Below are positions 1-49,792 of a stretch of 64,000 bases of DNA, piece after piece. Both the position numbers and the translations under genes were made by a program. The DNA is from Escherichia phage ph0021. Numbering within the stretch: the stretch's first letter is position 1; every line of letters starts with the position of its first letter. The stretch lies in the sequence record OP557970.1; one strand, 5' to 3'. The notes under the pieces are model-generated. The model saw nothing but the letters and a program-made list of their open reading frames with translations, made no database searches and was not told where the DNA came from.

Positions 1-630
1 TCAACTGTAGGTGGATCTGTCATTTGGCATCAAGGAAATTTTCCATTGAATTCAGCCGGTGACGATGTACTCTACAAATCATTTAAAATATATTCAGAAT
101 ATAATAAACCACAGGCAGCTGATAACGATTTCGTTTCTAAAGCTAATGGTGGTACTTACACCGGTCCAATTACTATTAATTACGGGGTAAATAGTTATCT
201 TCAATTAAGTAATAATGAAACCCCCATTCGAATTCGTTCTGGTGGCGGTACCGGTAATACTCTTGTAGTTGGCGGCTCTTCCGGTGGTATTAGTTTTAGA
301 CCTGCAGGTAGTGAAATCACTACTGGACAAATTACCATTACGCCAGAAGGTTTGACAACATTTACCAGGGCTGTAACGGCTCCATCGGTAACTGTTACAT
401 CTACTCCTTCCGCAGCATCTGATGTTACTCGTAAAGATTATGTTGATGGAGCAATAAATACTGTTACAGCAAATGCAAACTCTAGGGTATTACGCTCTGG
501 AGACACTATGACAGGAAATTTAACTGCGCCAAACCTTTTTTCACAGAATCCTGCATCTCAACCTTCACACGTTCCACGATTTGACCAAATCGTAATGAAG
601 GATTCTGTTCAAGATTTCGGCTATTATTAA
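1..630 (+). CDS. 36: long tail fibre protein gp36, 5'-truncated at window edge
   Basis: Frame open from position 1 to stop at 630; sits immediately upstream of gp37 as in T4; first in-frame start in window is TTG at 46. Confidence 0.65.
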
Positions 631-638
631 GAGGACTT

Positions 639-3605
639 ATGGCTACTTTAAAACAAATACAATTTAAAAGAAGCAAAACTGCAGGTCAACGTCCTGCTGC
701 TTCAGTATTAGCCGAAGGTGAATTGGCTATAAACTTAAAAGATAAAACAATTTTCACAAAAGATGACTCAGGTAGTGTTATAGAATTAGGTTTAAAATAT
801 GGAGGAACAATTGATGGTTCTTTAACTGTTAATGGAAACATAATTGGAAATTTAACAGGTAACGCTGCAACTGCAACGAAATTAAAAACAGCACGAAAAA
901 TTAATGGTATATCCTTTGATGGGTCAAAAGATATCACGCTAACTCCATCTGACATAAATGTCAATAGCACAACGTTTATAAAAAATAACGGCGAATTACC
1001 TGTTGATGCTAATTTAGATGAGTATGGGCCTGTTGAAGAATATCTTGGAGTTTGGTCGAAAGCAACTTCAACCAACGCTCAACCAGCAAATAAATTTCCA
1101 GAAGAAAATGCTGTAGGTGTTCTAGAAGTATTTGTGGCCGGTCAATTTGCTGGTACTCAGAGATATACAACTAGATACGGAAATGTTTATATTCGTTCCT
1201 TGACTGCTACATGGAACGGAGTAAATGGTCCGTGGAGTGTGTGGCGAAATATTCAATCCGGTACTCGTCCACTGTCAACAACAATTGATCTTAATGATCT
1301 AGGAGGCGCTGAACACCTTGGTTTGTGGCGAAATAGTTCAAATTCCATTGCTACCTTTGACAGAAATTTCCCAGAAGAGGGGTCGTCAGCTCAAGGTCTT
1401 TTGGAAGTATCTGAAGGTGGAAACTATTCTCGTACACAAAGATATACAACCAGATTTGGAGTTGTTTATACTCGCTGTCTTACTGCTGCATGGGATGCAT
1501 CTGCGCCTAAATGGGGACCGTGGCAACAAGTCGGTAATGTCACACCGGCGACTTTCTATGATGGAGATCTGAATGATTTTAAAACTCCTGGGTTATATAA
1601 TATTTTAGGCACTGATGCCGTTATTAACTGTCCTACAGGTGAAGGTTTGCCGACTGTTATTGTTGGTTTGCTGGAAGTTAAACAGCGTGCTTCTGGCGGT
1701 GCTATTTTCCAAAAATTTACTACTGCCGGAACAGGTGCAACTACTCGCGATCGTATTTTTGAGCGTGCATATACTGGTGGTGCGTGGGGTGCATGGAACG
1801 AAGTATATACATCTTATTCTCTGCCAATTACTTTGGGTATGGGTGGTATTAAAGCTCAATTAGCGGAGTTAGATTGGCAAACCTTTGATTTTGTCCCTGG
1901 TAGTATGTTTAGTGTTCCTTTGAACAAAATAAAGAATATGCCCGCAAATATGGATTGGGGCACGATTGATGGAAACCTGGTTATGTTTTCCGTTGGTCCT
2001 AGCGAACACACTAGCACAGGACGTACTGTTCAGATTTGGCGTGGTACTGTATCCCAGACAAACTACCGTTATTTTGTCGTTCGTGTATTCGGTAATTCAG
2101 GAAATAGAACTTGCACAGTTCGTCGTGTTGTTCTTGAAGACGGATCACATACTTGGACTGCTAAACAAGATTTTAATGGCGCAGTTAACTTTAACTCTAC
2201 TGTTAACCTTAATAACACTACCACATTTAAAACAGAAGTTAAATTTCGCTCATTGAATGCATTCCGTATGTATGGCGGAAAATTTGGTACATTTTTACGT
2301 AATGATGGAGAGAGTCTTTATATTCTTTCCACCGACGAAGATGATCAAGATGGAAACTTTAATACAAATAGACCTTTCCGTTATGAATTAAGAACTGGTG
2401 ATGTTACTTTAGGTGGTATTAGTGGTGCTAACGTTTTAAAATTAAAACGTGATTCTCTCACCGCATTTTTTGGTGGTGATATTAACATGAAAGGCTTGAT
2501 GACTTTTGACGCCGGACGTTTAGGATCACGAGATTATTTTAAATTTAACCATTGGGGTGATAGTAATAATGCGCGTGATAACATTATTCAGTTAGAAGAC
2601 AGCAAAGGCGCTCATTTTTCCACTGAACGTACTTTAGCGACTGGTGCAATTAAGACTAAATTTTTTGGTGAAATTGAATCCGATGGTAAATTGGTTATTA
2701 AACGTCCGGGTGATTCTATTGTATTATCAGCACCTGCTAATAATTCTTTGCATATTCGCGGTGATATAGACGGGACTGGTAACTGGTATATTGGTAAAGG
2801 TGGTACTGATAATGGATTAGCGTTCTATAGTTATGCTACTAATGCTGGTGTATACATTACAAACGCAGGAGATATCTCGCTAAGTCCAAAGGGTGCCGAA
2901 ATGGCTCAGGTCAATAACGTTCGATTATATGTTCATGGTGAACGTTGGACCGCTAGTCAACCAGGTGATTGGGGCAGTCAGTGGCAAGTGGAAGCGCCAA
3001 TATTCGTCGATCATGGTTATGTTGGATCAGATAGCTATTATCCAATTATTAAAGGAAGAAGTGTAGTCACCAATCAAGGGTTTGTAACTGCCGTCGATCT
3101 TGGTATTCGTCGTGTCAATAACAATTGGGGACAAGCAATTATTCGTGTTGGATCTGCGGAGGCATCGCCAGCGGCTGGACACCCTAACGCGGTATTTGAA
3201 TTTCATTACGACGGTACTTTCTATTCTCCTGGTAATGGTAACTTTAACGATGTGTATATTCGTTCCGATGGTCGTCTTAAGATTAATAAAAAAGAGCTAG
3301 AAAACGGAGCACTTGAAAAAGTATGCCGACTGAAAGTTTATATTTACGATAAGGTTAAGTCTATTAAAGACCGTAGTGTTATTAAACGCGAAGTTGGTAT
3401 TATTGCTCAGGATCTTGAAAAAGAATTACCGGAAGCTGTGTCTAAAGTTGAAGTTGATGGATCTGATGTTCTGACAATTTCTAACTCCGCTGTGAATGCT
3501 CTTTTAATTAAGGCTATCCAAGAAATGAGCGAAGAAATTAAAGAATTAAAAACGCCTTTCTTCACTAAAATTGCTCGCAAAATTAGTAAATATTTTAAAT
3601 TCTAA
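639..3605 (+). CDS. 37: long tail fibre distal subunit gp37
   Basis: 988 aa ORF with SD, followed by gene 38 and holin t; internal triplicated repeat; C-terminal helical tail. Confidence 0.85.
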
Positions 3606-5127: not shown

Positions 5128-5400
5128 TTATTTGTTCGTATACATCTCTAGATATCGATATACACCCTCAAAACCCTCGTTGAATTCGTCGATGAGGGTT
5201 TTCTTATCTTCTTGAGTTAATTCAGAAACAATTTTACGGAATGAATTCTGATTTAACTTTCTACCTTCATGCGTTACTCCAATCTCATTCAGAAATGCAA
5301 TAAAATTAGCACGATTCTCAACAATATCTTCTCTGGAAAATTTAATCAAAATAGACGCAACAGTAATAATTTCACGAACTGTATCAATATTTTTATTCAT
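5128..5400 (-). CDS. asiA: anti-sigma70 factor AsiA
   Basis: 90 aa, sequence matches remembered T4 AsiA (MNKNIDTVREIITVASILIKF...); convergent with t. Confidence 0.9.
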   Translation of the reverse strand: MNKNIDTVREIITVASILIKFSREDIVENRANFIAFLNEIGVTHEGRKLNQNSFRKIVSELTQEDKKTLIDEFNEGFEGVYRYLEMYTNK

Positions 5401-5412
5401 TAACTATACCAC

Positions 5413-5565
5413 TCAATTAGTTGACTTTGTTATAATATCATCAGACGTTTGTTTTGTAAACTGGTCTGTGTTATTTTCTTCAAAAATTTTTTCTACGAAT
5501 TCCTTGAACGACTCACGTTCCTGAGCTACATTATGCTCGATTACCATTTCAAGATTATGACTCAT
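5413..5565 (-). CDS. small hypothetical protein (~50 aa) between arn and asiA
   Basis: ATG overlaps arn stop (ATGA coupling); acidic protein; below ORF-track size cutoff, read by hand. Confidence 0.4.
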   Translation of the reverse strand: MSHNLEMVIEHNVAQERESFKEFVEKIFEENNTDQFTKQTSDDIITKSTN

Positions 5566-7219: not shown

Positions 7220-7855
7220 TCACAGTTCAGATGCTACGGTGATTACCGCTTCAATGTTTTCTGCCGAGCGTTTAATGTCAAGATACACATTACCGTTTTT
7301 AGCGATTTTACATGACATTCCGATATCAATAAATTTCTGAATATGATGTTCCATCATTTTGTATCCAAAAATTCGCATATTTCCATTATTGTTAATTTCA
7401 AAATTACGAATTCCGTGAGTGCGTTTTTCTAAAATAGCGAGATAGTTACTACGATAAGTTTCAACCTTTTTAAGAACAAATCCATTTTCATCTAAAAGTT
7501 TTAGCATAAGGTCTTTATCTTCTTCCATATCGGAAGTAATCTCACGAGCTTTACGAGTTGCTCGTTTTTTCAGTAGTTCAGGAGCATTTTCCTGTGCATA
7601 TAAAGTTGCTGCATTTGAAATAATATCCTGAGCTTCTCCTGTAATGATTAATCCATCACCAGATTTCTCTACCAGACCTTTTTTAATCAATACCCCAATA
7701 TTACTATTAACTACTGCATTACCTAAATCTGGATGCACCTCACGAACTTCTGCGGCTGTAATGAAATCTTTCTTAGCAATGGTAATTAAAATCGCAGCAG
7801 TTTTTTCATTCAGAACATCGTTAGAAGCTTTGATGATGTAAGTTACTTTAGACAT
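7220..7855 (-). CDS. motA: middle-transcription activator MotA
   Basis: 211 aa, sequence and length match remembered T4 MotA. Confidence 0.9.
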   Translation of the reverse strand: MSKVTYIIKASNDVLNEKTAAILITIAKKDFITAAEVREVHPDLGNAVVNSNIGVLIKKGLVEKSGDGLIITGEAQDIISNAATLYAQENAPELLKKRATRKAREITSDMEEDKDLMLKLLDENGFVLKKVETYRSNYLAILEKRTHGIRNFEINNNGNMRIFGYKMMEHHIQKFIDIGMSCKIAKNGNVYLDIKRSAENIEAVITVASEL

Positions 7856-16379: not shown

Positions 16380-16409
16380 ATTATACCACATCCTTGTGGT
16401 AAAGTAAAC
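16380..16409 (-). promoter_or_regulatory. T4 early-type promoter (GTTTAC / TATAAT)
   Basis: GTTTAC-18nt-TATAAT; spacer holds palindrome CCACAAGGATGTGG; overlaps 3' end of gene 39. Confidence 0.65.
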
Positions 16410-18229
16410 TACTGGCTCATCCATTCTTTACGAAGGTCAGCATTATCTCCCATGAGCATTTCAAAAAGCTCTTTCCAATTCTCAGGAAGTTTAACAACAT
16501 CATATACTGGGTTTTGAATCATCTCACGATATTCAGATTTTTCCAAAGAGCCAAGTCCTTTAATATAACGGATGCTATGTTTAGGTAGAGCATCTTTGGC
16601 ACTCTCATATTCAGCGACTGTATAAAACCATTCTTGTTTTTTACCAATTTGAGCGATGATTACAGGAGTTTTGACAAAACGAATTCGTCCTTGCTCAAAC
16701 AATTCTGGCCAATTACTAAAAAATCCGAGCAAAGAAGGATAAATGCTTCCTAGACCATCATGGTCGGCATCAGTCATAATAGCAATATTATGATAATTTA
16801 AGTTTTCAGCCTTTTCACCGAGAACTAATCCAGTGATTGCGCAAATATCAAATAGTTCTTTGTTTTTAAGCATATCTGCATAAGACATACCCCAACTGTT
16901 GAGAACTTTACCGCGCAATGGATAACCACCGTGAAGTTCTTTATCACGAACATCAATAAGATATCCGATAGCCGAATCACCCTCAGTTAAGAATAGTGTA
17001 GTGTCAGCATCTTTACCGCAAAGATTCGCTTTAATATGTTTATGAACCTTAGCTTTAGAAGCCTTTTTAGCTGCTTTAGTTTCTGCTGCTTTTTCTGCTG
17101 CCAATTTACGGGCCAAGGCAGCTTCAATAATCGGCATTAAAATTGCTTCATTATTTAGAATAGCGCGTGAAATCTTTTTAGCATCAAGTTGAATATGACT
17201 ACGAATTTCGCCAAATGGAGAAGTCAAACGCTCTTTAGTTTGAGAATCAAATCGCATGTTTTTCATATCACGGACAAACATAACGATAGTCAAACATTCT
17301 TTGACACGTGCTTTAGTCACATCAATTTTGAACTTACGTTTGATTTGCGGAATAAGGTCTTCACAAATATCATCCATAACACAGTCAATGTGATGGCCAC
17401 CATTCTTAGTGTGAATGTTATTGACGTATGTTAATTGACGAAAACCATCCGGTGAACGACCAACCGCAATAGAACAATTTTCTTGTTCTTGAACAATAGC
17501 ATGCTCATCATATTGGCGTGCATATTTCTTAAAATTGCCCTGAACCTTTTTACCATTAAAGGTAAATTGAATATCAGGATAAACTACTGCAAGTGTCTGG
17601 AGACGATCTAGTGTAATGTCAAGATAAACTTGAGATAGCTCATTAGTTTCAAATGACATAAAATCAGGAATGAAAGTAACACGTGTTCCTTTCCATTTTC
17701 CAGGAATATCTTCCCATGATTTATTTTCCATACCATTTGAACAACGAACTACAATATTATTTTGACCGTCGCCAGTTTCACCAACAAACATCACAGAAAA
17801 AATGTTTGTCAAACTAGAACCAACACCGTTCATACCGCCAGTGACGCGTTCTTTATCATCACCGAAGTTACCACCTGCTTTTGGAATAGTCCATGCAGCA
17901 ACAGGACCAGGAATTTCTTCACCGGTAGGTGTTTTGACCATCGCTTGTGGAATACCACGACCGTTATCTTCAACTGTTACTTGATTGTTTTTAATAGTAA
18001 CATTAATTTTATTCGCGAATTTAAACTTAGTACGAATACCTTCATCTACTGAGTTATCGATAATTTCATCAATAAGCTTAACAAGACCAGGTACATACTG
18101 AACACTTTCCCATTTACCAAACAGAAAGCGCTCATGCATTTCATTAGCAGAAGAGCCAATGTACATGCCACTACGCTTTTTGATATGTTCAATATCGCTC
18201 AGAATTTTAATTTCATTCTTAATCATCAC
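16409..18229 (-). CDS. 39: DNA topoisomerase II large subunit gp39 (GyrB-like), unsplit form
   Basis: 606 aa continuous ORF with GyrB ATPase/Toprim sequence; no gene 60 interruption. Confidence 0.9.
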   Translation of the reverse strand: MMIKNEIKILSDIEHIKKRSGMYIGSSANEMHERFLFGKWESVQYVPGLVKLIDEIIDNSVDEGIRTKFKFANKINVTIKNNQVTVEDNGRGIPQAMVKTPTGEEIPGPVAAWTIPKAGGNFGDDKERVTGGMNGVGSSLTNIFSVMFVGETGDGQNNIVVRCSNGMENKSWEDIPGKWKGTRVTFIPDFMSFETNELSQVYLDITLDRLQTLAVVYPDIQFTFNGKKVQGNFKKYARQYDEHAIVQEQENCSIAVGRSPDGFRQLTYVNNIHTKNGGHHIDCVMDDICEDLIPQIKRKFKIDVTKARVKECLTIVMFVRDMKNMRFDSQTKERLTSPFGEIRSHIQLDAKKISRAILNNEAILMPIIEAALARKLAAEKAAETKAAKKASKAKVHKHIKANLCGKDADTTLFLTEGDSAIGYLIDVRDKELHGGYPLRGKVLNSWGMSYADMLKNKELFDICAITGLVLGEKAENLNYHNIAIMTDADHDGLGSIYPSLLGFFSNWPELFEQGRIRFVKTPVIIAQIGKKQEWFYTVAEYESAKDALPKHSIRYIKGLGSLEKSEYREMIQNPVYDVVKLPENWKELFEMLMGDNADLRKEWMSQ

Positions 18230-18253: not shown

Positions 18254-18283
18254 ATTATACTCCGGTAATCATAAAGCTAAAGG
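18254..18283 (-). promoter_or_regulatory. candidate middle-type promoter upstream of gene 39 (AGCTTTA box, 12 nt, TATAAT)
   Basis: Minus strand TTTAGCTTTATGATTACCGGAGTATAAT directly after terminator hairpin. Confidence 0.4.
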
Positions 18284-18294
18284 CCCGAAGGCCT
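18281..18294 (-). terminator. AGGCC-CGAA-GGCCT hairpin
   Basis: Perfect 5 bp stem immediately after stop of upstream ORF. Confidence 0.5.
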
Positions 18295-18295
18295 T

Positions 18296-18556
18296 TTATT
18301 TAAAACGAATAGTTGAATCCTTAAAGAACAGTCCAGAACATACTGTTCCTTCTACTTTCTGCCCAGTAGGTCCAATAGCACGAAATCCAGTATGTTGGAA
18401 ATCATTTTCAGAGCAACCGAACCAGTTATATCCAGTGATTTCAATATTAGTAAAACCGCTTGAAGACAAAACTTTGGTTGCATTATCAGCATCAGTACAT
18501 CCTACTAAAGACACTACTAATACTAATGCTGCAATAGAACGATTAATATATTTCAT
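18296..18556 (-). CDS. putative lipoprotein (39.1 position)
   Basis: 86 aa, signal peptide with lipobox LVGC. Confidence 0.55.
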   Translation of the reverse strand: MKYINRSIAALVLVVSLVGCTDADNATKVLSSSGFTNIEITGYNWFGCSENDFQHTGFRAIGPTGQKVEGTVCSGLFFKDSTIRFK

Positions 18557-28468: not shown

Positions 28469-28539
28469 AGTGCTCTCCTCTATAAGATAATTCTATTATA
28501 CCATACTCATTTTGATATGTAAACCATTTAAATGAAAAA

Positions 28540-28557
28540 GGACTCCCGAAGGAGTCC
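28540..28557 (-). terminator. intrinsic terminator after soc
   Basis: GGACTCC-CGAA-GGAGTCC 7 bp stem, U-run follows on minus strand. Confidence 0.55.
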
Positions 28558-28563
28558 TTGAAT

Positions 28564-36120: not shown

Positions 36121-36963
36121 AACTGCTATCGGATGAATAGCATTAAACTTATGAAATGCTTCTGATTTTTCTTTACGTGAAACACACATGCGAAGAACCT
36201 TTAGTGGTTCATCTTCTTCACCCAACGATTTTCGTTTTTCAATATTAGAAGTTTTCCAACGAGCTTGTTCTGGAAACTCTCTATTGATTTGCTCAAGCGC
36301 TCTATTATGTTTAGAATTACTACGAATTGAACTGCACCCGCCAGGAGCTTGTGCTTTTCCAGATACAACCAGATATTTGAACAAGGCCAAATGCGGATAA
36401 CCTTGATTAATTAAATTGAGAAATGCATACATATCTTCGCATAAATCAATTTTTCCATACCCAATTTGTTCTGTCGTAAGTTTTCCGAGGTCATACCATG
36501 TATTCGTGAATCCATATGAATTTTCACGATAATTACCCCAAGATGAAGTAATTTTAAAAATTGGTAAACGAGCATGGCCATGATAATATCCGCAATCCAT
36601 GGCATCCTCAACATATTGAATCAATTCATAGAACTGTTCACGAGTTAATTGATTGACTTTATCTACACAACGACGATCATCTCTTTTTCGCATTGAACTC
36701 ATACGAATAGTAGTATCATCGTCAATCATCCAAATTCGTTGACCTGCATACATATCAGTAATTGCTTTACGAGTTCCAGAAATTCCATTTACATCATCAG
36801 GAATAGTTATAATTTTAGCTTTAGACCCATAGGCATCATAATAAGCTTTTTCTTCGTGTTCACGTACTACAATATGTGGTTCATAATCAGTCGGAAACAT
36901 ATCAAGGGCAGAAACTGCCCCTACACGTTGATAGCTTGGAATTACGAATTGAATCATTTCCAC
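36115..36963 (-). CDS. DNA glycosyltransferase at T4 beta-gt position, probably beta-alpha-glucosyltransferase type
   Basis: 282 aa (not the 351 aa T4 beta-gt), DxD motif WMIDDDTTI. Confidence 0.55.
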   Translation of the reverse strand: MEMIQFVIPSYQRVGAVSALDMFPTDYEPHIVVREHEEKAYYDAYGSKAKIITIPDDVNGISGTRKAITDMYAGQRIWMIDDDTTIRMSSMRKRDDRRCVDKVNQLTREQFYELIQYVEDAMDCGYYHGHARLPIFKITSSWGNYRENSYGFTNTWYDLGKLTTEQIGYGKIDLCEDMYAFLNLINQGYPHLALFKYLVVSGKAQAPGGCSSIRSNSKHNRALEQINREFPEQARWKTSNIEKRKSLGEEDEPLKVLRMCVSRKEKSEAFHKFNAIHPIAVD

Positions 36964-41615: not shown

Positions 41616-41675
41616 AGATATTCCTTAGTTTATAGCCCGAGTTATTAGGCTCTTGATATATTATACTCCAATTAA

Positions 41676-41689
41676 GGGGCCGAAGCCCC
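41676..41689 (-). terminator. GGGGC-CGAA-GCCCC hairpin
   Basis: Perfect stem between regA stop and gene 43; TATAAT follows on minus strand. Confidence 0.4.
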
Positions 41690-41693
41690 TTGC

Positions 41694-45027: not shown

Positions 45028-46710
45028 TTAAACCATTACAGTAAATCGACCAACTTTCTTCATTTGAAGATGCTGACCGTATGCTTGCGGGTCATGGTCT
45101 CTATGCGAAATAACAAAAACATTAGTATTTTTTAAACTATCTAAAATAGTTGAAATAGCTTTTACACCTTCAACGTCGGTCGCTGAATCAAAAACTTCAT
45201 CAAGAATTAGTGTGTTTATTTTAACGCCTGAAACTTTTTCAGCAATATCACGCCAAGTAAATAAAAGAGCAATATCAATTCGCGCTTTTTCACCTTGACT
45301 GAATGAAGCATAACTAAAATCTTCACGACCACGTGATTTAATTGTCTCATTAAATTCTTCATCTAATGTAAACACATAATCCGCTTCCATTATTTTAAGA
45401 TAATGGTTAATCTGCTTATTAAATAATGGAATGTACTTTTTAATAATAGCACCTTTAATACCAGAATCTTTGAGCATATCAGTCAAAATTCCTCGGTGGT
45501 ATTTTTCCATTACTAAATTAGTTTTTGTCTTAACAATTTTATCAAGTTCTTCTTGAAGCAGTGCTATTTCATCAGCATGGTCAATAAACTCAGAAGATGC
45601 TTTTTCTATAGCCGCTTTAACCTTTTTAGCTTTATCTACTGCTGCGATCAGAGATTGCTTTTTATTGCGAATATCATTTGCCAACGACTGCTGGGTTTTA
45701 ATATTATCTCGGTATTCATCAACAAGAACTTTTAAATTATCACGATGTGTTGAAAGCTGTTCAAATGAATGCGTACATTCAGAAATTTTATCTTTAATTT
45801 TAGAAACAACTTTATCACCTGAACTTAATTGTGACAAGCAGGTTGGGCATAATCCACCTTCGTGATACATATTAATGACTTTATTATACGAGTCAATTTT
45901 TGATTTAATTAAAACTGCTTCTTGACCGATTTTATTAAATGCATCAGTCGGGTCTTCATCTAAAACAATATTAACTAATCTTTCATTAGCTTCTTCTATT
46001 TCCGATTTTAGCGTTCTAGCTTCTTTTGCCAAATCATCATACATATTTTGAAGACGAGTAAGGTTGTCACCCGTTAATTTTTTCTGGCGTTCAACGTTAT
46101 CATTATATATTTTAATTTGTTGGATAATACTATCTTTTTTAACATCAAGCACTTGGTTTTGTGAATTTAATTCACGTATTAGTGCTTTATTAAGCTTATC
46201 CATTTCAGCTAATGTTCCTACCTCAAGCAGGTCTTCCACAAGCTTTCTTCGCGCAGGGGTCGACAAACCCATGAAAGGGGTATACCCTGCTGTACCAAGG
46301 ACAACAATCTGCTTGAAACTGGCATATGACATTCCGATAAGCTGTTCAAATTCTGCTTGGAAATCTTTACTGCTGGCAGATTCATTAAGACGTGCACCGT
46401 TAACGGTGATTTCGAAAACGTTTGGTTTTTGTCCTCTTTTGATATAGTACTTTTTCTCATCATATTCCATCCACAGTTCAACTAAAAGTTCTTTCTTATT
46501 TGTGCTGTTTATTAATTGACCTTTCTTTACATCACGAAATGGCTTGCCAAAAAGCCCAAATGTGATGGCTTCTAACATAGTAGACTTACCACCGCCATTT
46601 CGTCCAGTAATAAGAGTTTTTTGAACCTTATCTAATTGAATGTCAATAGGATTTCCACCTACTGACATTATATTTTGATACCTAACTCGGTTTAGTTTAA
46701 AATTCTTCAC
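45028..46710 (-). CDS. 46: recombination endonuclease subunit gp46 (Rad50/SbcC-like)
   Basis: 560 aa, Walker A GRNGGGKST, coiled-coil middle, signature and Walker B at C-terminus. Confidence 0.9.
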   Translation of the reverse strand: MKNFKLNRVRYQNIMSVGGNPIDIQLDKVQKTLITGRNGGGKSTMLEAITFGLFGKPFRDVKKGQLINSTNKKELLVELWMEYDEKKYYIKRGQKPNVFEITVNGARLNESASSKDFQAEFEQLIGMSYASFKQIVVLGTAGYTPFMGLSTPARRKLVEDLLEVGTLAEMDKLNKALIRELNSQNQVLDVKKDSIIQQIKIYNDNVERQKKLTGDNLTRLQNMYDDLAKEARTLKSEIEEANERLVNIVLDEDPTDAFNKIGQEAVLIKSKIDSYNKVINMYHEGGLCPTCLSQLSSGDKVVSKIKDKISECTHSFEQLSTHRDNLKVLVDEYRDNIKTQQSLANDIRNKKQSLIAAVDKAKKVKAAIEKASSEFIDHADEIALLQEELDKIVKTKTNLVMEKYHRGILTDMLKDSGIKGAIIKKYIPLFNKQINHYLKIMEADYVFTLDEEFNETIKSRGREDFSYASFSQGEKARIDIALLFTWRDIAEKVSGVKINTLILDEVFDSATDVEGVKAISTILDSLKNTNVFVISHRDHDPQAYGQHLQMKKVGRFTVMV

Positions 46711-48308: not shown

Positions 48309-48335
48309 ATTATATCAAACTCCGTATAAAGCTAA
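48309..48335 (-). promoter_or_regulatory. candidate middle-type promoter (AGCTTTA box, 12 nt, TATAAT)
   Basis: Minus strand TTTAGCTTTATACGGAGTTTGATATAAT right after hairpin; same architecture as element at 18254-18294. Confidence 0.35.
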
Positions 48336-48336
48336 A

Positions 48337-48348
48337 GGGCCGAAGCCC
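48337..48348 (-). terminator. GGGC-CGAA-GCCC hairpin after a-gt
   Basis: Perfect stem immediately after a-gt stop. Confidence 0.5.
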
Positions 48349-48349
48349 T

Positions 48350-49552
48350 TTATTTTGTAATAATGTCAAACTGCTCTTTAAAGCAGAAGCTTGAATCTTG
48401 GTGCTGATACAAAAATTCATAAGCTTTTTCGCGTTCACGGTCATAAAGAGCTCGGTCAGATGACAGTTCTTTAATACGTTCAAATGTTGATTCCATGTCA
48501 TTTTCATCAAACCAAACAATACCGCTATCATGAGAAATTAATGGAGTGTTATCAACACGGAATTTTAAATTTTCGCCAGTAGATTTCCAAAATACCGGAA
48601 TTGTTCCACATGCACCAAGCTCGAGATGAGTATATTCTAAAGAACGTTGTAGATATTTTTTATCCAACTTACTCAACTGATAACCAAAACCGGATTTACT
48701 CATACGTTCAAGCATTTCGCTATTTACATAACGGTCAAGAATTTGCGTTGGCAAATTAGAAGCAATTTTAATTTGGTCTACTTGATGAAGACGATAATAC
48801 TCGTATGGAATTCCTTTTTCTTTAATAGGAATGAACGCTGGAGAACGTTCCAGACCTTCCATAATAGTACTTAGTCCTGCAGGTTTAAGATGTTTTTCGT
48901 GAAAATCAAACATCTGGTAAAAACCTTTCCATGTAGTCGTACGACCAATCCAACGGTTGATATTCATGTTAATTTCAGAAACATCTTTCCAGTAGGTTGA
49001 TCGAACCTTTGCAATATCCATCGGAGGCTGAAAGTTATATACTGTCGGTGCTTCTTCAATATCATCAAACAGAGAAACTGTTTCAGGATACCATTCTTTC
49101 ATCAGAACTTTATTAAAATCGCCATTATCAGAATGGCTAAAAATAACATCAGCTCGACGAACAGTTTCTTCTAATCCCAAATTTCGACGCAAAGAAAGAG
49201 AAGAATGGTCATGTTGATAAACTACAACACGAACAGAAGGTTTAATGTTATCAATAATTTTTTTATAGTTATTAATAGTGTCTTCTTCAACCGAAGTAGC
49301 AGGAACTGAATTAATAATTAGAATATCACAATCATTTACCAGCTTAAGTGTTTTATCATATTCTTTTGCCAATAAAACCGGAATTGAAAATGATTTATAA
49401 TCATGCGCGCAATTACGAGTAAATGATTTATCTTTAGCATAAACCAAAGTTACTTCATGACCATTTTTAATAAACCAATCACGTTGCTCGAGTGAGAATT
49501 TTGTTACACCACAACCTTCAAGACCTCGAGCCATAAAAATACATACTTTCAT
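48350..49552 (-). CDS. agt: DNA alpha-glucosyltransferase
   Basis: 400 aa, length and position after gene 47 match T4 a-gt. Confidence 0.8.
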   Translation of the reverse strand: MKVCIFMARGLEGCGVTKFSLEQRDWFIKNGHEVTLVYAKDKSFTRNCAHDYKSFSIPVLLAKEYDKTLKLVNDCDILIINSVPATSVEEDTINNYKKIIDNIKPSVRVVVYQHDHSSLSLRRNLGLEETVRRADVIFSHSDNGDFNKVLMKEWYPETVSLFDDIEEAPTVYNFQPPMDIAKVRSTYWKDVSEINMNINRWIGRTTTWKGFYQMFDFHEKHLKPAGLSTIMEGLERSPAFIPIKEKGIPYEYYRLHQVDQIKIASNLPTQILDRYVNSEMLERMSKSGFGYQLSKLDKKYLQRSLEYTHLELGACGTIPVFWKSTGENLKFRVDNTPLISHDSGIVWFDENDMESTFERIKELSSDRALYDREREKAYEFLYQHQDSSFCFKEQFDIITK

Positions 49553-49605
49553 TTAATATCCTCTTTGTTTTGGTTTATTTTACCAAAAATTTATAAAGCA
49601 ATATA

Positions 49606-49619
49606 GGAGCCGAAGCTCC
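49606..49619 (-). terminator. GGAGC-CGAA-GCTCC hairpin
   Basis: Perfect 5 bp stem upstream of a-gt. Confidence 0.45.
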
Positions 49620-49621
49620 TA

Positions 49622-49792
49622 TCCGCATAATACACCATACAAAGGCTCATTAGAGCTTCTAAATTTTATGCGCTTATATGTTATAGTTCCTTCTGCTTTA
49701 GCTTTATCATTAGACTCTTTAAAGAGTCTCATCATTTCCTCTTTAGAGGAACGAATTTTATTATAATCTATTTCAGAAGTCTGGGTGTTCAT
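49622..49792 (-). CDS. small hypothetical protein (~56 aa)
   Basis: Read by hand, ATG close to upstream stop. Confidence 0.35.

Follow-up and report, generated by a model that had tools for sequence, protein, structure and literature searches.

The two composite elements described here are very probably P39 and P47, two known middle promoters of phage T4 that depend on MotA and AsiA, each joined to an RNA hairpin; this explanation draws on a comparison of their sequence with the published T4 promoter map. The elements lie on the minus strand of a 64,000-nt stretch of DNA from Escherichia phage ph0021 (record OP557970.1), the whole of which we call the window. At both sites the minus strand reads, in order, a stop codon, a GC hairpin with a UUCG loop, TTTAGCTTTA, 12 nt and TATAAT, and the composites extend over 18296-18254 and 48352-48309 (Table 1).

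The hairpin, box and TATAAT that a preliminary description had placed at these two sites were read as claimed on the minus strand, with the right coordinates. The lipoprotein gene that it had put upstream of site 1 is an ORF of 86 aa with a lipoprotein-type signal (..LVGC). Its stems of 4–5 bp have to be lengthened: with the flanking A-U pairs, they are 7–8 bp long. Relative to site 1, the site 2 stem (as DNA, TAAAGGGC-TTCG-GCCCTTTA) carries a compensatory C-G to G-C swap. At site 1, the TTT of the MotA box doubles as the U-run behind the hairpin. At site 2, the transcript start is 8 nt 3′ of the A in the ATG of ORF 47.1, which is 46 aa in length. The 12-nt gap to TATAAT given earlier is correct if measured from the end of the MotA box (..GCTTTA), but it is 11 nt if measured from the end of the shared 11-mer TTTAGCTTTAT.

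The 37-nt pattern CTTCGG-N3-TTTAGCTTTAT-N11-TATAAT was found twice in the window, against 0.00 expected from 100 dinucleotide-preserving shuffles. The exact 11-mer TTTAGCTTTAT occurred four times, against 0.15 expected from shuffles. Its plus-strand occurrences, at 45625 and 49697, were rejected as promoters, as they lack a -10 box at the right spacing and are antisense to coding sequence.

Table 1. Coordinates of the composite elements and associated features in the window, and orthologous units in other genera
Feature	Position	Strand	Sequence	Basis or remark
TAA stop of 39.1-like lipoprotein ORF	18298-18296	-	TAA	Sequence
Site 1 hairpin	18279..18296	-	AAAGGCC-UUCG-GGCCUUU	Sequence and fold; overlaps the stop of the 39.1-like ORF
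P39 MotA box	18272..18281	-	TTTAGCTTTA	Published consensus
P39 spacer (12 nt)	18260..18271	-	TGATTACCGGAG	Sequence
GGAG in P39 spacer	18263-18260	-	GGAG	
P39 -10 box	18254..18259	-	TATAAT	Same in T4
P39 transcript start	18247	-	G	Equivalent to T4 5349, mapped from Hinton 2010 Table 1
Gene 39 ATG	18226	-	ATG	Start codon
TAA stop of a-gt	48352-48350	-	TAA	Sequence
Site 2 hairpin	48333..48352	-	UAAAGGGC-UUCG-GCCCUUUA	Sequence and fold; overlaps the a-gt stop
P47 MotA box	48327..48336	-	TTTAGCTTTA	Published consensus; promoter annotation in phage Lutter
P47 spacer (12 nt)	48315..48326	-	TACGGAGTTTGA	Sequence
GGAG in P47 spacer	48323-48320	-	GGAG	Ribosome-binding site of ORF 47.1
P47 -10 box	48309..48314	-	TATAAT	Sequence; overlaps the ORF 47.1 ATG (48310-48308)
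P47 transcript start	48302	-	T	Equivalent to T4 36576, mapped from Hinton 2010 Table 1
Gene 47 ATG	48173	-	ATG	Sequence
Third composite	49577..49622	-	AUAGGAGC-UUCG-GCUCCUAU, ATTGCTTTA, 11 nt, TAAAAT	Directly upstream of a-gt
P43 unit	41660..41691	-	AAGGGGC-UUCG-GCCCCUU, AATTGGAG, TATAAT	T4 P43 start 29933
motA	7223..7855	-		tblastn, 97.6% identity to T4 MotA, 211 aa; trans-activator acting at the MotA box
asiA	5131..5400	-		tblastn, 100% identity to T4 AsiA; co-activator acting on sigma-70 region 4
Gene 39 unit, Dhakavirus C6			GGGC-TTCG-GCCC, TTTTATGCTTTA	
Gene 39 unit, Gaprivervirus VR25			GGCC-TTCG-GGCC, TTTTTGCTTTA	
Gene 39 unit, Mosigvirus APCEc01			GGGC-TTCG-GCCC, TTTTTGCTTTA	
Gene 47/47.1 unit, Dhakavirus CLB_P2 and UP19			AGGAGC-TTAG-GCTCCT, TTTTTTGCTTTA	
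Gene 47/47.1 unit, Mosigvirus mar005P1			GAACTC-TTCG-GAGTTC, CTTTTTTGCTTTA	
Gene 47/47.1 unit, Moonvirus CF1			GGACC-TTCG-GGTCC, TTTTCTGCTTTT	

Both sites are base-for-base the same in T4, from the hairpin to the transcript start. To place them on the T4 map, the T4 minus strand upstream of all 58 starts in Table 1 of Hinton 2010 (PMC2988021) was inspected. In that table, Guild et al. 1988 is the source for the P39 start at 5349, and the P47 start at 36576 is credited to the same paper together with Hsu & Karam 1990. T4 positions 5349 (G) and 36576 (T) lie 7 nt downstream of exactly these TATAAT boxes. Because the T4 sequence is the same and the published starts lie 7 nt past TATAAT, we identify the two elements with P39 and P47. 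The proposal that genes 39 and 47 are preceded by middle promoters of the MotA type, with transcript 5′ ends past the TATAAT boxes, is thus upheld by promoters already mapped in the same sequence.

The published consensus for middle promoters is (a/t)(a/t)(a/t)TGCTTtA, centred near -30 and separated by 12 ± 1 bp from TAtaaT (PMC2988021). P39 and P47 fit it with TTTAGCTTTA and a 12-nt spacer, in agreement with the earlier statement that the spacing suits middle promoters, and the sole deviation is an A in place of the T before GCTT. Both have TATAAT as the -10 element, in keeping with the form TAnnnT. MotA is reported to tolerate single changes in the box (PMC2988021), and among the mapped T4 promoters an A precedes GCT in 5 of the 48 NGCT boxes. 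The window encodes close homologues of both MotA and AsiA (Table 1). The dependence of T4 P39 and P47 on MotA and AsiA is credited to Guild 1988 in the Hinton review (PMC2988021), and by analogy with T4 the promoters of this phage would be expected to depend on MotA.

The element is alike in this phage and in T4 in sequence, in its position upstream of 39 and 47.1/47, and in box, spacing and -10 element. Elsewhere the phage differs from T4 in having an unsplit gene 39, in the absence of mobB and in an identity of ∼95–99%, whereas the element itself is without difference. The window as a whole is 95–99% identical to several hundred Tequatrovirus (T4-like) genomes, and 100% identical to a record named 'Pseudomonas phage PsgM02F'. 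Several public records already annotate parts of the two sites: at the gene 39 site fPS-90 has a terminator and then a 'predicted middle promoter', fPS-65 has a terminator at the a-gt/47 hairpin, and the phage Lutter record has a promoter over the P47 box and -10 element. Promoter and terminator features are absent at both sites from the T4 GenBank and RefSeq records. Each component (both promoters with their start sites, the hairpin family and the idea of the composite) is therefore already known from the literature or from public annotation. The mapping of P39 and P47 goes back to the late 1980s, the description of the hairpin family to 1988 and the composite stem-loop/promoter concept to 2010–2014, which leaves little discovery value. 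The value is in annotation, as exact promoter, transcript start and hairpin coordinates are fixed in the window and two overlooked copies are added.

These copies bear on the earlier count of the composite, which had been seen twice. The exact composite does occur twice, but the count is too low, as there are also a third copy (49622-49577) and the P43 unit. The third composite has the hairpin ATAGGAGC-TTCG-GCTCCTAT (as DNA) and a canonical box, TTGCTTTA. It is the counterpart of the mapped T4 promoter PmobB (start 38682 in Hinton 2010 Table 1); mobB was not found at this locus of the window by tblastn. At P43, the GCTT motif sits inside the hairpin. The window thus has four hairpin-linked mapped middle promoters, namely P39, P47, the PmobB equivalent and P43. 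When the T4 genome was scanned strictly for a hairpin followed by GCT(T/A), 13–15 nt and TAnnnT, only P39, P47 and PmobB had UUCG loops. Three loose composite matches in the window (9926-9910, 22545-22530 and 5506-5520) were rejected, having weak boxes and no UUCG loop. The matches at 9926-9910 and 22545-22530 had no composite match in the T4 scan, and that at 5506-5520 recurs on the T4 plus strand.

Gene 39 is preceded by the composite in Dhakavirus, Gaprivervirus and Mosigvirus as well, and so is gene 47 in Dhakavirus, Mosigvirus and Moonvirus; the stem sequences differ (Table 1). In a Klebsiella phage the hairpin after 39.1 is retained, but next to it come an early-type promoter and an additional ORF. 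Searching IMG/VR for the exact pattern gave 103 matches, ∼45 of them with real stems (6 bp or longer), and those that could be placed by their flanking sequence were T4-like. In the IMG/VR matches, A preceded GCTTTA only at P39 and P47 of Tequatrovirus and in two further contigs, and all others had T. The conserved A that had been noted at the first position of the box is therefore a feature inside Tequatrovirus, and does not extend to the orthologous promoters of four other genera, where the canonical T is present. Judged from these comparisons, AGCTTTA is a Tequatrovirus-specific variant of the canonical TGCTTTA of the relatives, within a unit conserved across at least five genera of the Tevenvirinae. 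MotA reads minor-groove features at -32 and -33 (PMC2988021), and a swap from A:T to T:A would be expected to change these features little.

CUUCGG hairpins are abundant in the intergenic regions of T4 (Tuerk et al. 1988, as cited in PMC8948821). A scan of the window for GC-rich stems capped by TTCG found 11 on the minus (sense) strand and none on the plus strand. The same scan of T4 gave 20 on the minus strand and three on the plus strand, and all three are where the plus strand is the sense strand, so that 23/23 are sense-oriented. Both hairpins of the composites have a C-G-closed UUCG loop and a complementary stem, and both are intergenic and on the transcribed strand. They share the loop, the closing pair, the GC-rich stem, the intergenic place and the sense orientation with the T4 C(UUCG)G hairpins, and are members of that set with no difference. 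What follows a hairpin of this kind varies. It may be a middle promoter (P39, P47, PmobB and P43), a T4 early promoter (GTTTAC.., for example at window position 28559) or, in T4, the late-promoter motif TATAAATA (T4 125541); many in the window go straight to a ribosome-binding site and ATG, without a U-run.

The predicted fold of the site 1 hairpin has a free energy of about -10.7 kcal/mol and is present in the centroid structure, although its z-score in context is weak (-0.9). For site 2 the values are -13.1 kcal/mol and z = -2.3. Across 12 aligned units the stem covaried, a 7-bp helix being paired in 95% of cells, with 17 changes on both sides of the stem. None of 500 shuffles reached the observed value, and helices slid out of register were paired in 19–70% of cells. 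An Rfam scan of the whole window matched no family.

With bacterial intrinsic terminators, both sites share a GC-rich stem-loop followed by U residues just past a stop codon; they differ in that the U-tract is short and interrupted (UUUAGCUUUAU behind each hairpin) and in that read-through is documented. A simple terminator scan called neither hairpin on the minus strand. This result was not taken as absence of a terminator because the stem had been extended through A/U pairs, leaving too few U's. On the plus strand, the same kind of scan called a terminator at 48333-48352. In a study of 68 intergenic GGAG/U motifs of T4, the GGAG of 47.1 was 'moderately cleaved' by RegB in vivo (Durand 2006, PMC1702504). 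Since this GGAG is upstream of the P47 start, some RNA must read through the hairpin, and termination at the P47 hairpin is partial at best. Middle genes are expressed by extension of early transcripts as well as from middle promoters (PMC2988021). The idea that each unit terminates and then re-initiates transcription is plausible and agrees with the terminator annotations in fPS-90 and fPS-65, but termination is only predicted and read-through is documented. The efficiency of termination, and the share of read-through relative to promoter-initiated RNA, are quantities that we infer.

A working scheme can be proposed for the unit. The stable C(UUCG)G hairpin at the upstream stop codon (39.1 or a-gt) would mark and protect the 3′ end of early transcripts, and with the U-run that follows it probably terminates part of them. 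During the middle period, AsiA would remodel region 4 of sigma-70, MotA would bind the box near -30 and sigma region 2 would bind TATAAT. Transcription would then restart 7 nt past TATAAT, towards gene 39 or gene 47. The T-run is used twice, since it forms the tail of the putative terminator and also the 5′ end of the MotA box, which is rich in A/T. As only 69 nt (site 1) and 39 nt (site 2) separate the stop codon from the next start, the hairpin abuts the -30 box. The overlap at the T-run and these short spaces impose one arrangement on both sites and account for a large part of the shared TTTAGCTTTAT, so that common descent need not be invoked for it.

The GGAG in the spacers allows a wider reading, which we consider unlikely, where the hairpin, MotA box, GGAG and -10 element form a three-way device that includes RegB cutting of read-through RNA and a recombination joint. 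Read-through early RNA would carry the spacer GGAG, and cutting by RegB would both separate and inactivate such RNA. RNA from the middle promoter would start downstream of the GGAG and so escape RegB. The same unit would be a joint that moves cassettes like a-gt and homogenises P39, P43 and P47 within a lineage. Among the orthologues examined, all five for gene 47 (four genera) and three of the four with a MotA-type promoter for gene 39 retain GGA(G/U) in a spacer that is otherwise variable, and a spacer GGAG occurs in three of the four T4 promoters linked to a hairpin. There was, however, no enrichment of GGA[GT] in middle-promoter spacers when the mapped promoters were taken together (7 of 58, against a genome background of 11.9%). 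Positions -16 to -13 of the mapped promoters are purine-rich and without C, which weakens the RegB idea because such a composition partly forces GGAG. A further point against it is that the GGAG of T4 P47 is simply the ribosome-binding site of 47.1. We take the spacer GGAG as a lead, not a finding, on how early RNA is separated from middle RNA.

If the hairpins are not terminators, they could act only after transcription, as barriers to 3′-to-5′ exonucleases and as processing landmarks, with efficient read-through; we regard this as doubtful, though a serious alternative. The interrupted U-tract and the minus-strand scan without a terminator agree with it, as do the read-through RNA indicated by RegB cleavage at the 47.1 GGAG and the production of middle genes by early-transcript extension. 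It is favoured too by the many other UUCG hairpins of the window that lead directly to a ribosome-binding site and ATG without a U-run, and a stabilising role has been published for the CUUCGG hairpin of gene 32 mRNA (PMC8948821). Against this, a stem followed by UUU and more U's within 10 nt resembles moderate intrinsic terminators, the pipelines of annotators call terminators at both sites (fPS-90 and fPS-65), and the stem-loops of early-promoter composites terminated transcription in reporter assays (Arbiol 2010, PMC2839356). An action mainly on the plus strand, terminating antisense or late-direction transcription, is highly improbable. The T-runs are better there (TTTTATTT at site 1 and TTTTGTAATA at site 2), the scan calls a terminator at site 2 and the folds are as stable as those of the minus strand, but the extra-stable UUCG loop forms only in minus-strand RNA (the plus strand has CGAA), the sense orientation is strict in both the window (11 to 0) and T4 (23/23), and there are no plus-strand genes or known plus-strand promoters nearby. 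That the two copies are alike by chance in an AT-rich genome has a negligible probability: it would gain from the two additional exact copies of TTTAGCTTTAT on the plus strand, which are explained by coding composition, but the composite had an expectation of 0.00 in the shuffles, and both sites coincide with mapped promoters and are conserved across genera.

The remaining alternative concerns the origin of the likeness, not the function of the unit. The copies may be alike through recombination, with the stem-loop and middle promoter forming a mobile cassette joint of the PeSL/PmSL type, where gene cassettes would enter or leave and whose copies homogenise, and independent selection on the two motifs would then not be the main cause. 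We hold this to be a reasonable possibility, if short of probable. Between a-gt.2 and 47(.1), a single composite is present in Mosigvirus mar005P1 and in Dhakavirus, as against two in the window and T4, which lie on either side of a-gt (with mobB in addition in T4). Agreement with the single copy extends as far as TTGCTTTATAAA in the left copy and runs from GCTTTATA..CGGA on in the right copy, which puts the apparent crossover zone at the MotA box. P39, P43 and P47 are mosaic: GGGCTTCGGCCC (a hairpin 12-mer) is common to P43 and P47, GGAGTATAATAT to P39 and P43, and CCTTTAGCTTTAT (a 13-mer) to P39 and P47. This mosaic corresponds to a prediction of the published PeSL recombination model, a mechanism described for the early-promoter versions (Arbiol 2010, PMC2839356; Comeau 2014, PMC4122927). 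CGGAGTATAATA is common to T4 P39 and to P47 of phage CLB_P2. Likeness is also seen within lineages, as P39 and P47 of Mosigvirus share TTTTTGCTTTA and CGGATGATAGAAT, and both promoters of T4 have AGCTTTA and CGGAG. On the other hand, few characters and few genomes stand behind the comparison, and the shared 13-mer is within the range found for other promoter pairs (13 to 16 nt) in a shared-word comparison of all 1653 pairs of mapped T4 promoters. The T-run and box are functionally constrained in any case, and genes 39 and 47 are conserved core replication/recombination genes, not ORFs of the hyperplastic regions. Common origin and selection, the two sources suggested earlier for the shared sequence, both probably contribute, and selection alone would not account for all of the likeness. 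Recombinational relatedness would be a real but unproven contributor to the similarity.

The units resemble published PeSL and PmSL elements in that a stem-loop at the upstream stop codon leads immediately into a promoter, behind which come the ribosome-binding site and start codon, and in being repeated in the genome. PeSLs have sigma-70-type early promoters and are found in hyperplastic regions with variable ORFs, whereas the units here have middle promoters and precede core genes. For RB49 and phi1, mini-circles gave proof of recombination between PeSL units (Arbiol et al. 2010, PMC2839356); at the units here, recombination is suggested by their sequence. Comeau et al. 2014 (PMC4122927) introduced the name PmSL for a Mot-box version in Vibrio phage nt-1; in these two papers PmSLs are reported from nt-1 and not from T4. 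A strict PeSL has an early promoter with a -35 box, and at P39 and P47 a Mot box replaces the -35 hexamer; the two units fit the PmSL variant, not the strict PeSL. The a-gt cassette, too, is flanked here by two units. The flanking units of a-gt and the mosaic of P39, P43 and P47 are leads, not findings, on gene shuffling in T4-like genomes. As for position at a cassette boundary, the a-gt locus has two flanking copies here and one copy in Mosigvirus and Dhakavirus (a handful of genomes), and the Klebsiella phage has its extra ORF after the gene 39 hairpin, with P39 itself being located before a core gene.

A third composite of a UUCG-loop hairpin, a MotA box and a -10 box, further to those at the middle promoters P39 and P47, lies directly 5′ of a-gt in the window (see the table). 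As a composite is thus also present directly upstream of this gene, a-gt is placed between two composites, with one on each side. This differs from Mosigvirus and Dhakavirus, in which a-gt is absent from the corresponding position and only one composite is present. The T4 counterpart of the third composite is the middle promoter PmobB; mobB itself is present in T4 but missing here.

At the second composite, that of P47, both the annotated ATG and the ribosome-binding site of ORF 47.1 are 5′ of the P47 start, so that the annotated 47.1 can only be translated from RNA that has passed through the a-gt hairpin. A GTG is found in frame six codons 3′ of the ATG, and this could act as a start codon on P47-initiated RNA. 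The 47.1 GGAG is cut moderately by RegB (Durand 2006, PMC1702504).

At the P39 locus, gene 39 is one 606-aa ORF (16409-18229, minus strand), which is matched without a break by T4 gp39 together with the initial portion of gp60. The gene for the topoisomerase large subunit is therefore unsplit, unlike that of T4, which is divided (gene 60 bypass, mobA insertion). Klebsiella phage Lion_ER11 retains the hairpin after the 39.1 homologue; next in order come a promoter of early type (TTTACA, 17 nt, TATTAT), an additional ORF of 121 aa and then gene 39, which has a separate MotA-type promoter without a hairpin (TTGCTATA, 12 nt, TATAAT).

Features of the hairpin-promoter units and related sites
Feature	Position	Strand	Sequence or location
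Third hairpin/middle-promoter composite: GGAGC-TTCG-GCTCC, ATTGCTTTA, 11 nt, TAAAAT	49577-49622	-	window
47.1 ATG, upstream of mapped P47 start (48302)	48310-48308	-	window
47.1 ribosome-binding site GGAG, upstream of the same start	48323-48320	-	window
P43 unit, GCTT motif within UUCG hairpin GGGGCTTCGG	41660-41691	-	window
UUCG hairpin, T-run, early -35 motif GTTTAC	28538-28559	-	window
UUCG hairpin, T-run, early -35 motif GTTTAC	130339, 58797, 55414, 15303		T4
Region with hairpin ATGACC-TTCG-GGTCAT after 39.1 homologue, early-type promoter, extra ORF and gene 39 promoter	about 480-990		Lion_ER11 (L011)
PtRNAE, P31, P32 group	72593, 131540, 148057		T4, outside window

In the P43 middle-promoter unit, GCTT is 17 nt from TATAAT, compared with 14 nt at P39 and P47; counted from the published start, though, it occupies roughly positions -31 to -28. 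The units with GTTTAC, in the window and in T4, are of the published PeSL (stem-loop plus early promoter) type, the early-promoter form of the P39/P47 architecture. At T4 125541, upstream of alt, the element next to the hairpin on its 3′ side is the late-promoter motif TATAAATA.

Among the mapped T4 middle promoters, PtRNAE matches P31 almost completely across ∼40 nt, with the 16-mer TATTTGTTATTATTAA in common, and P32 is similar to both; near-duplicate middle promoters are therefore not confined to P39 and P47.

An Rfam scan of window positions 1-64000 gave no family at or above the gathering score. The T4 nrdD group I intron (with I-TevII) would map inside the window by its T4 coordinates, and nrdD of this phage may therefore lack the intron. 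The window is typical of Tequatrovirus, with 95-99% identity to coliphages, and is 100% identical to the record ‘Pseudomonas phage PsgM02F’, whose host label (Pseudomonas coronafaciens) looks doubtful.
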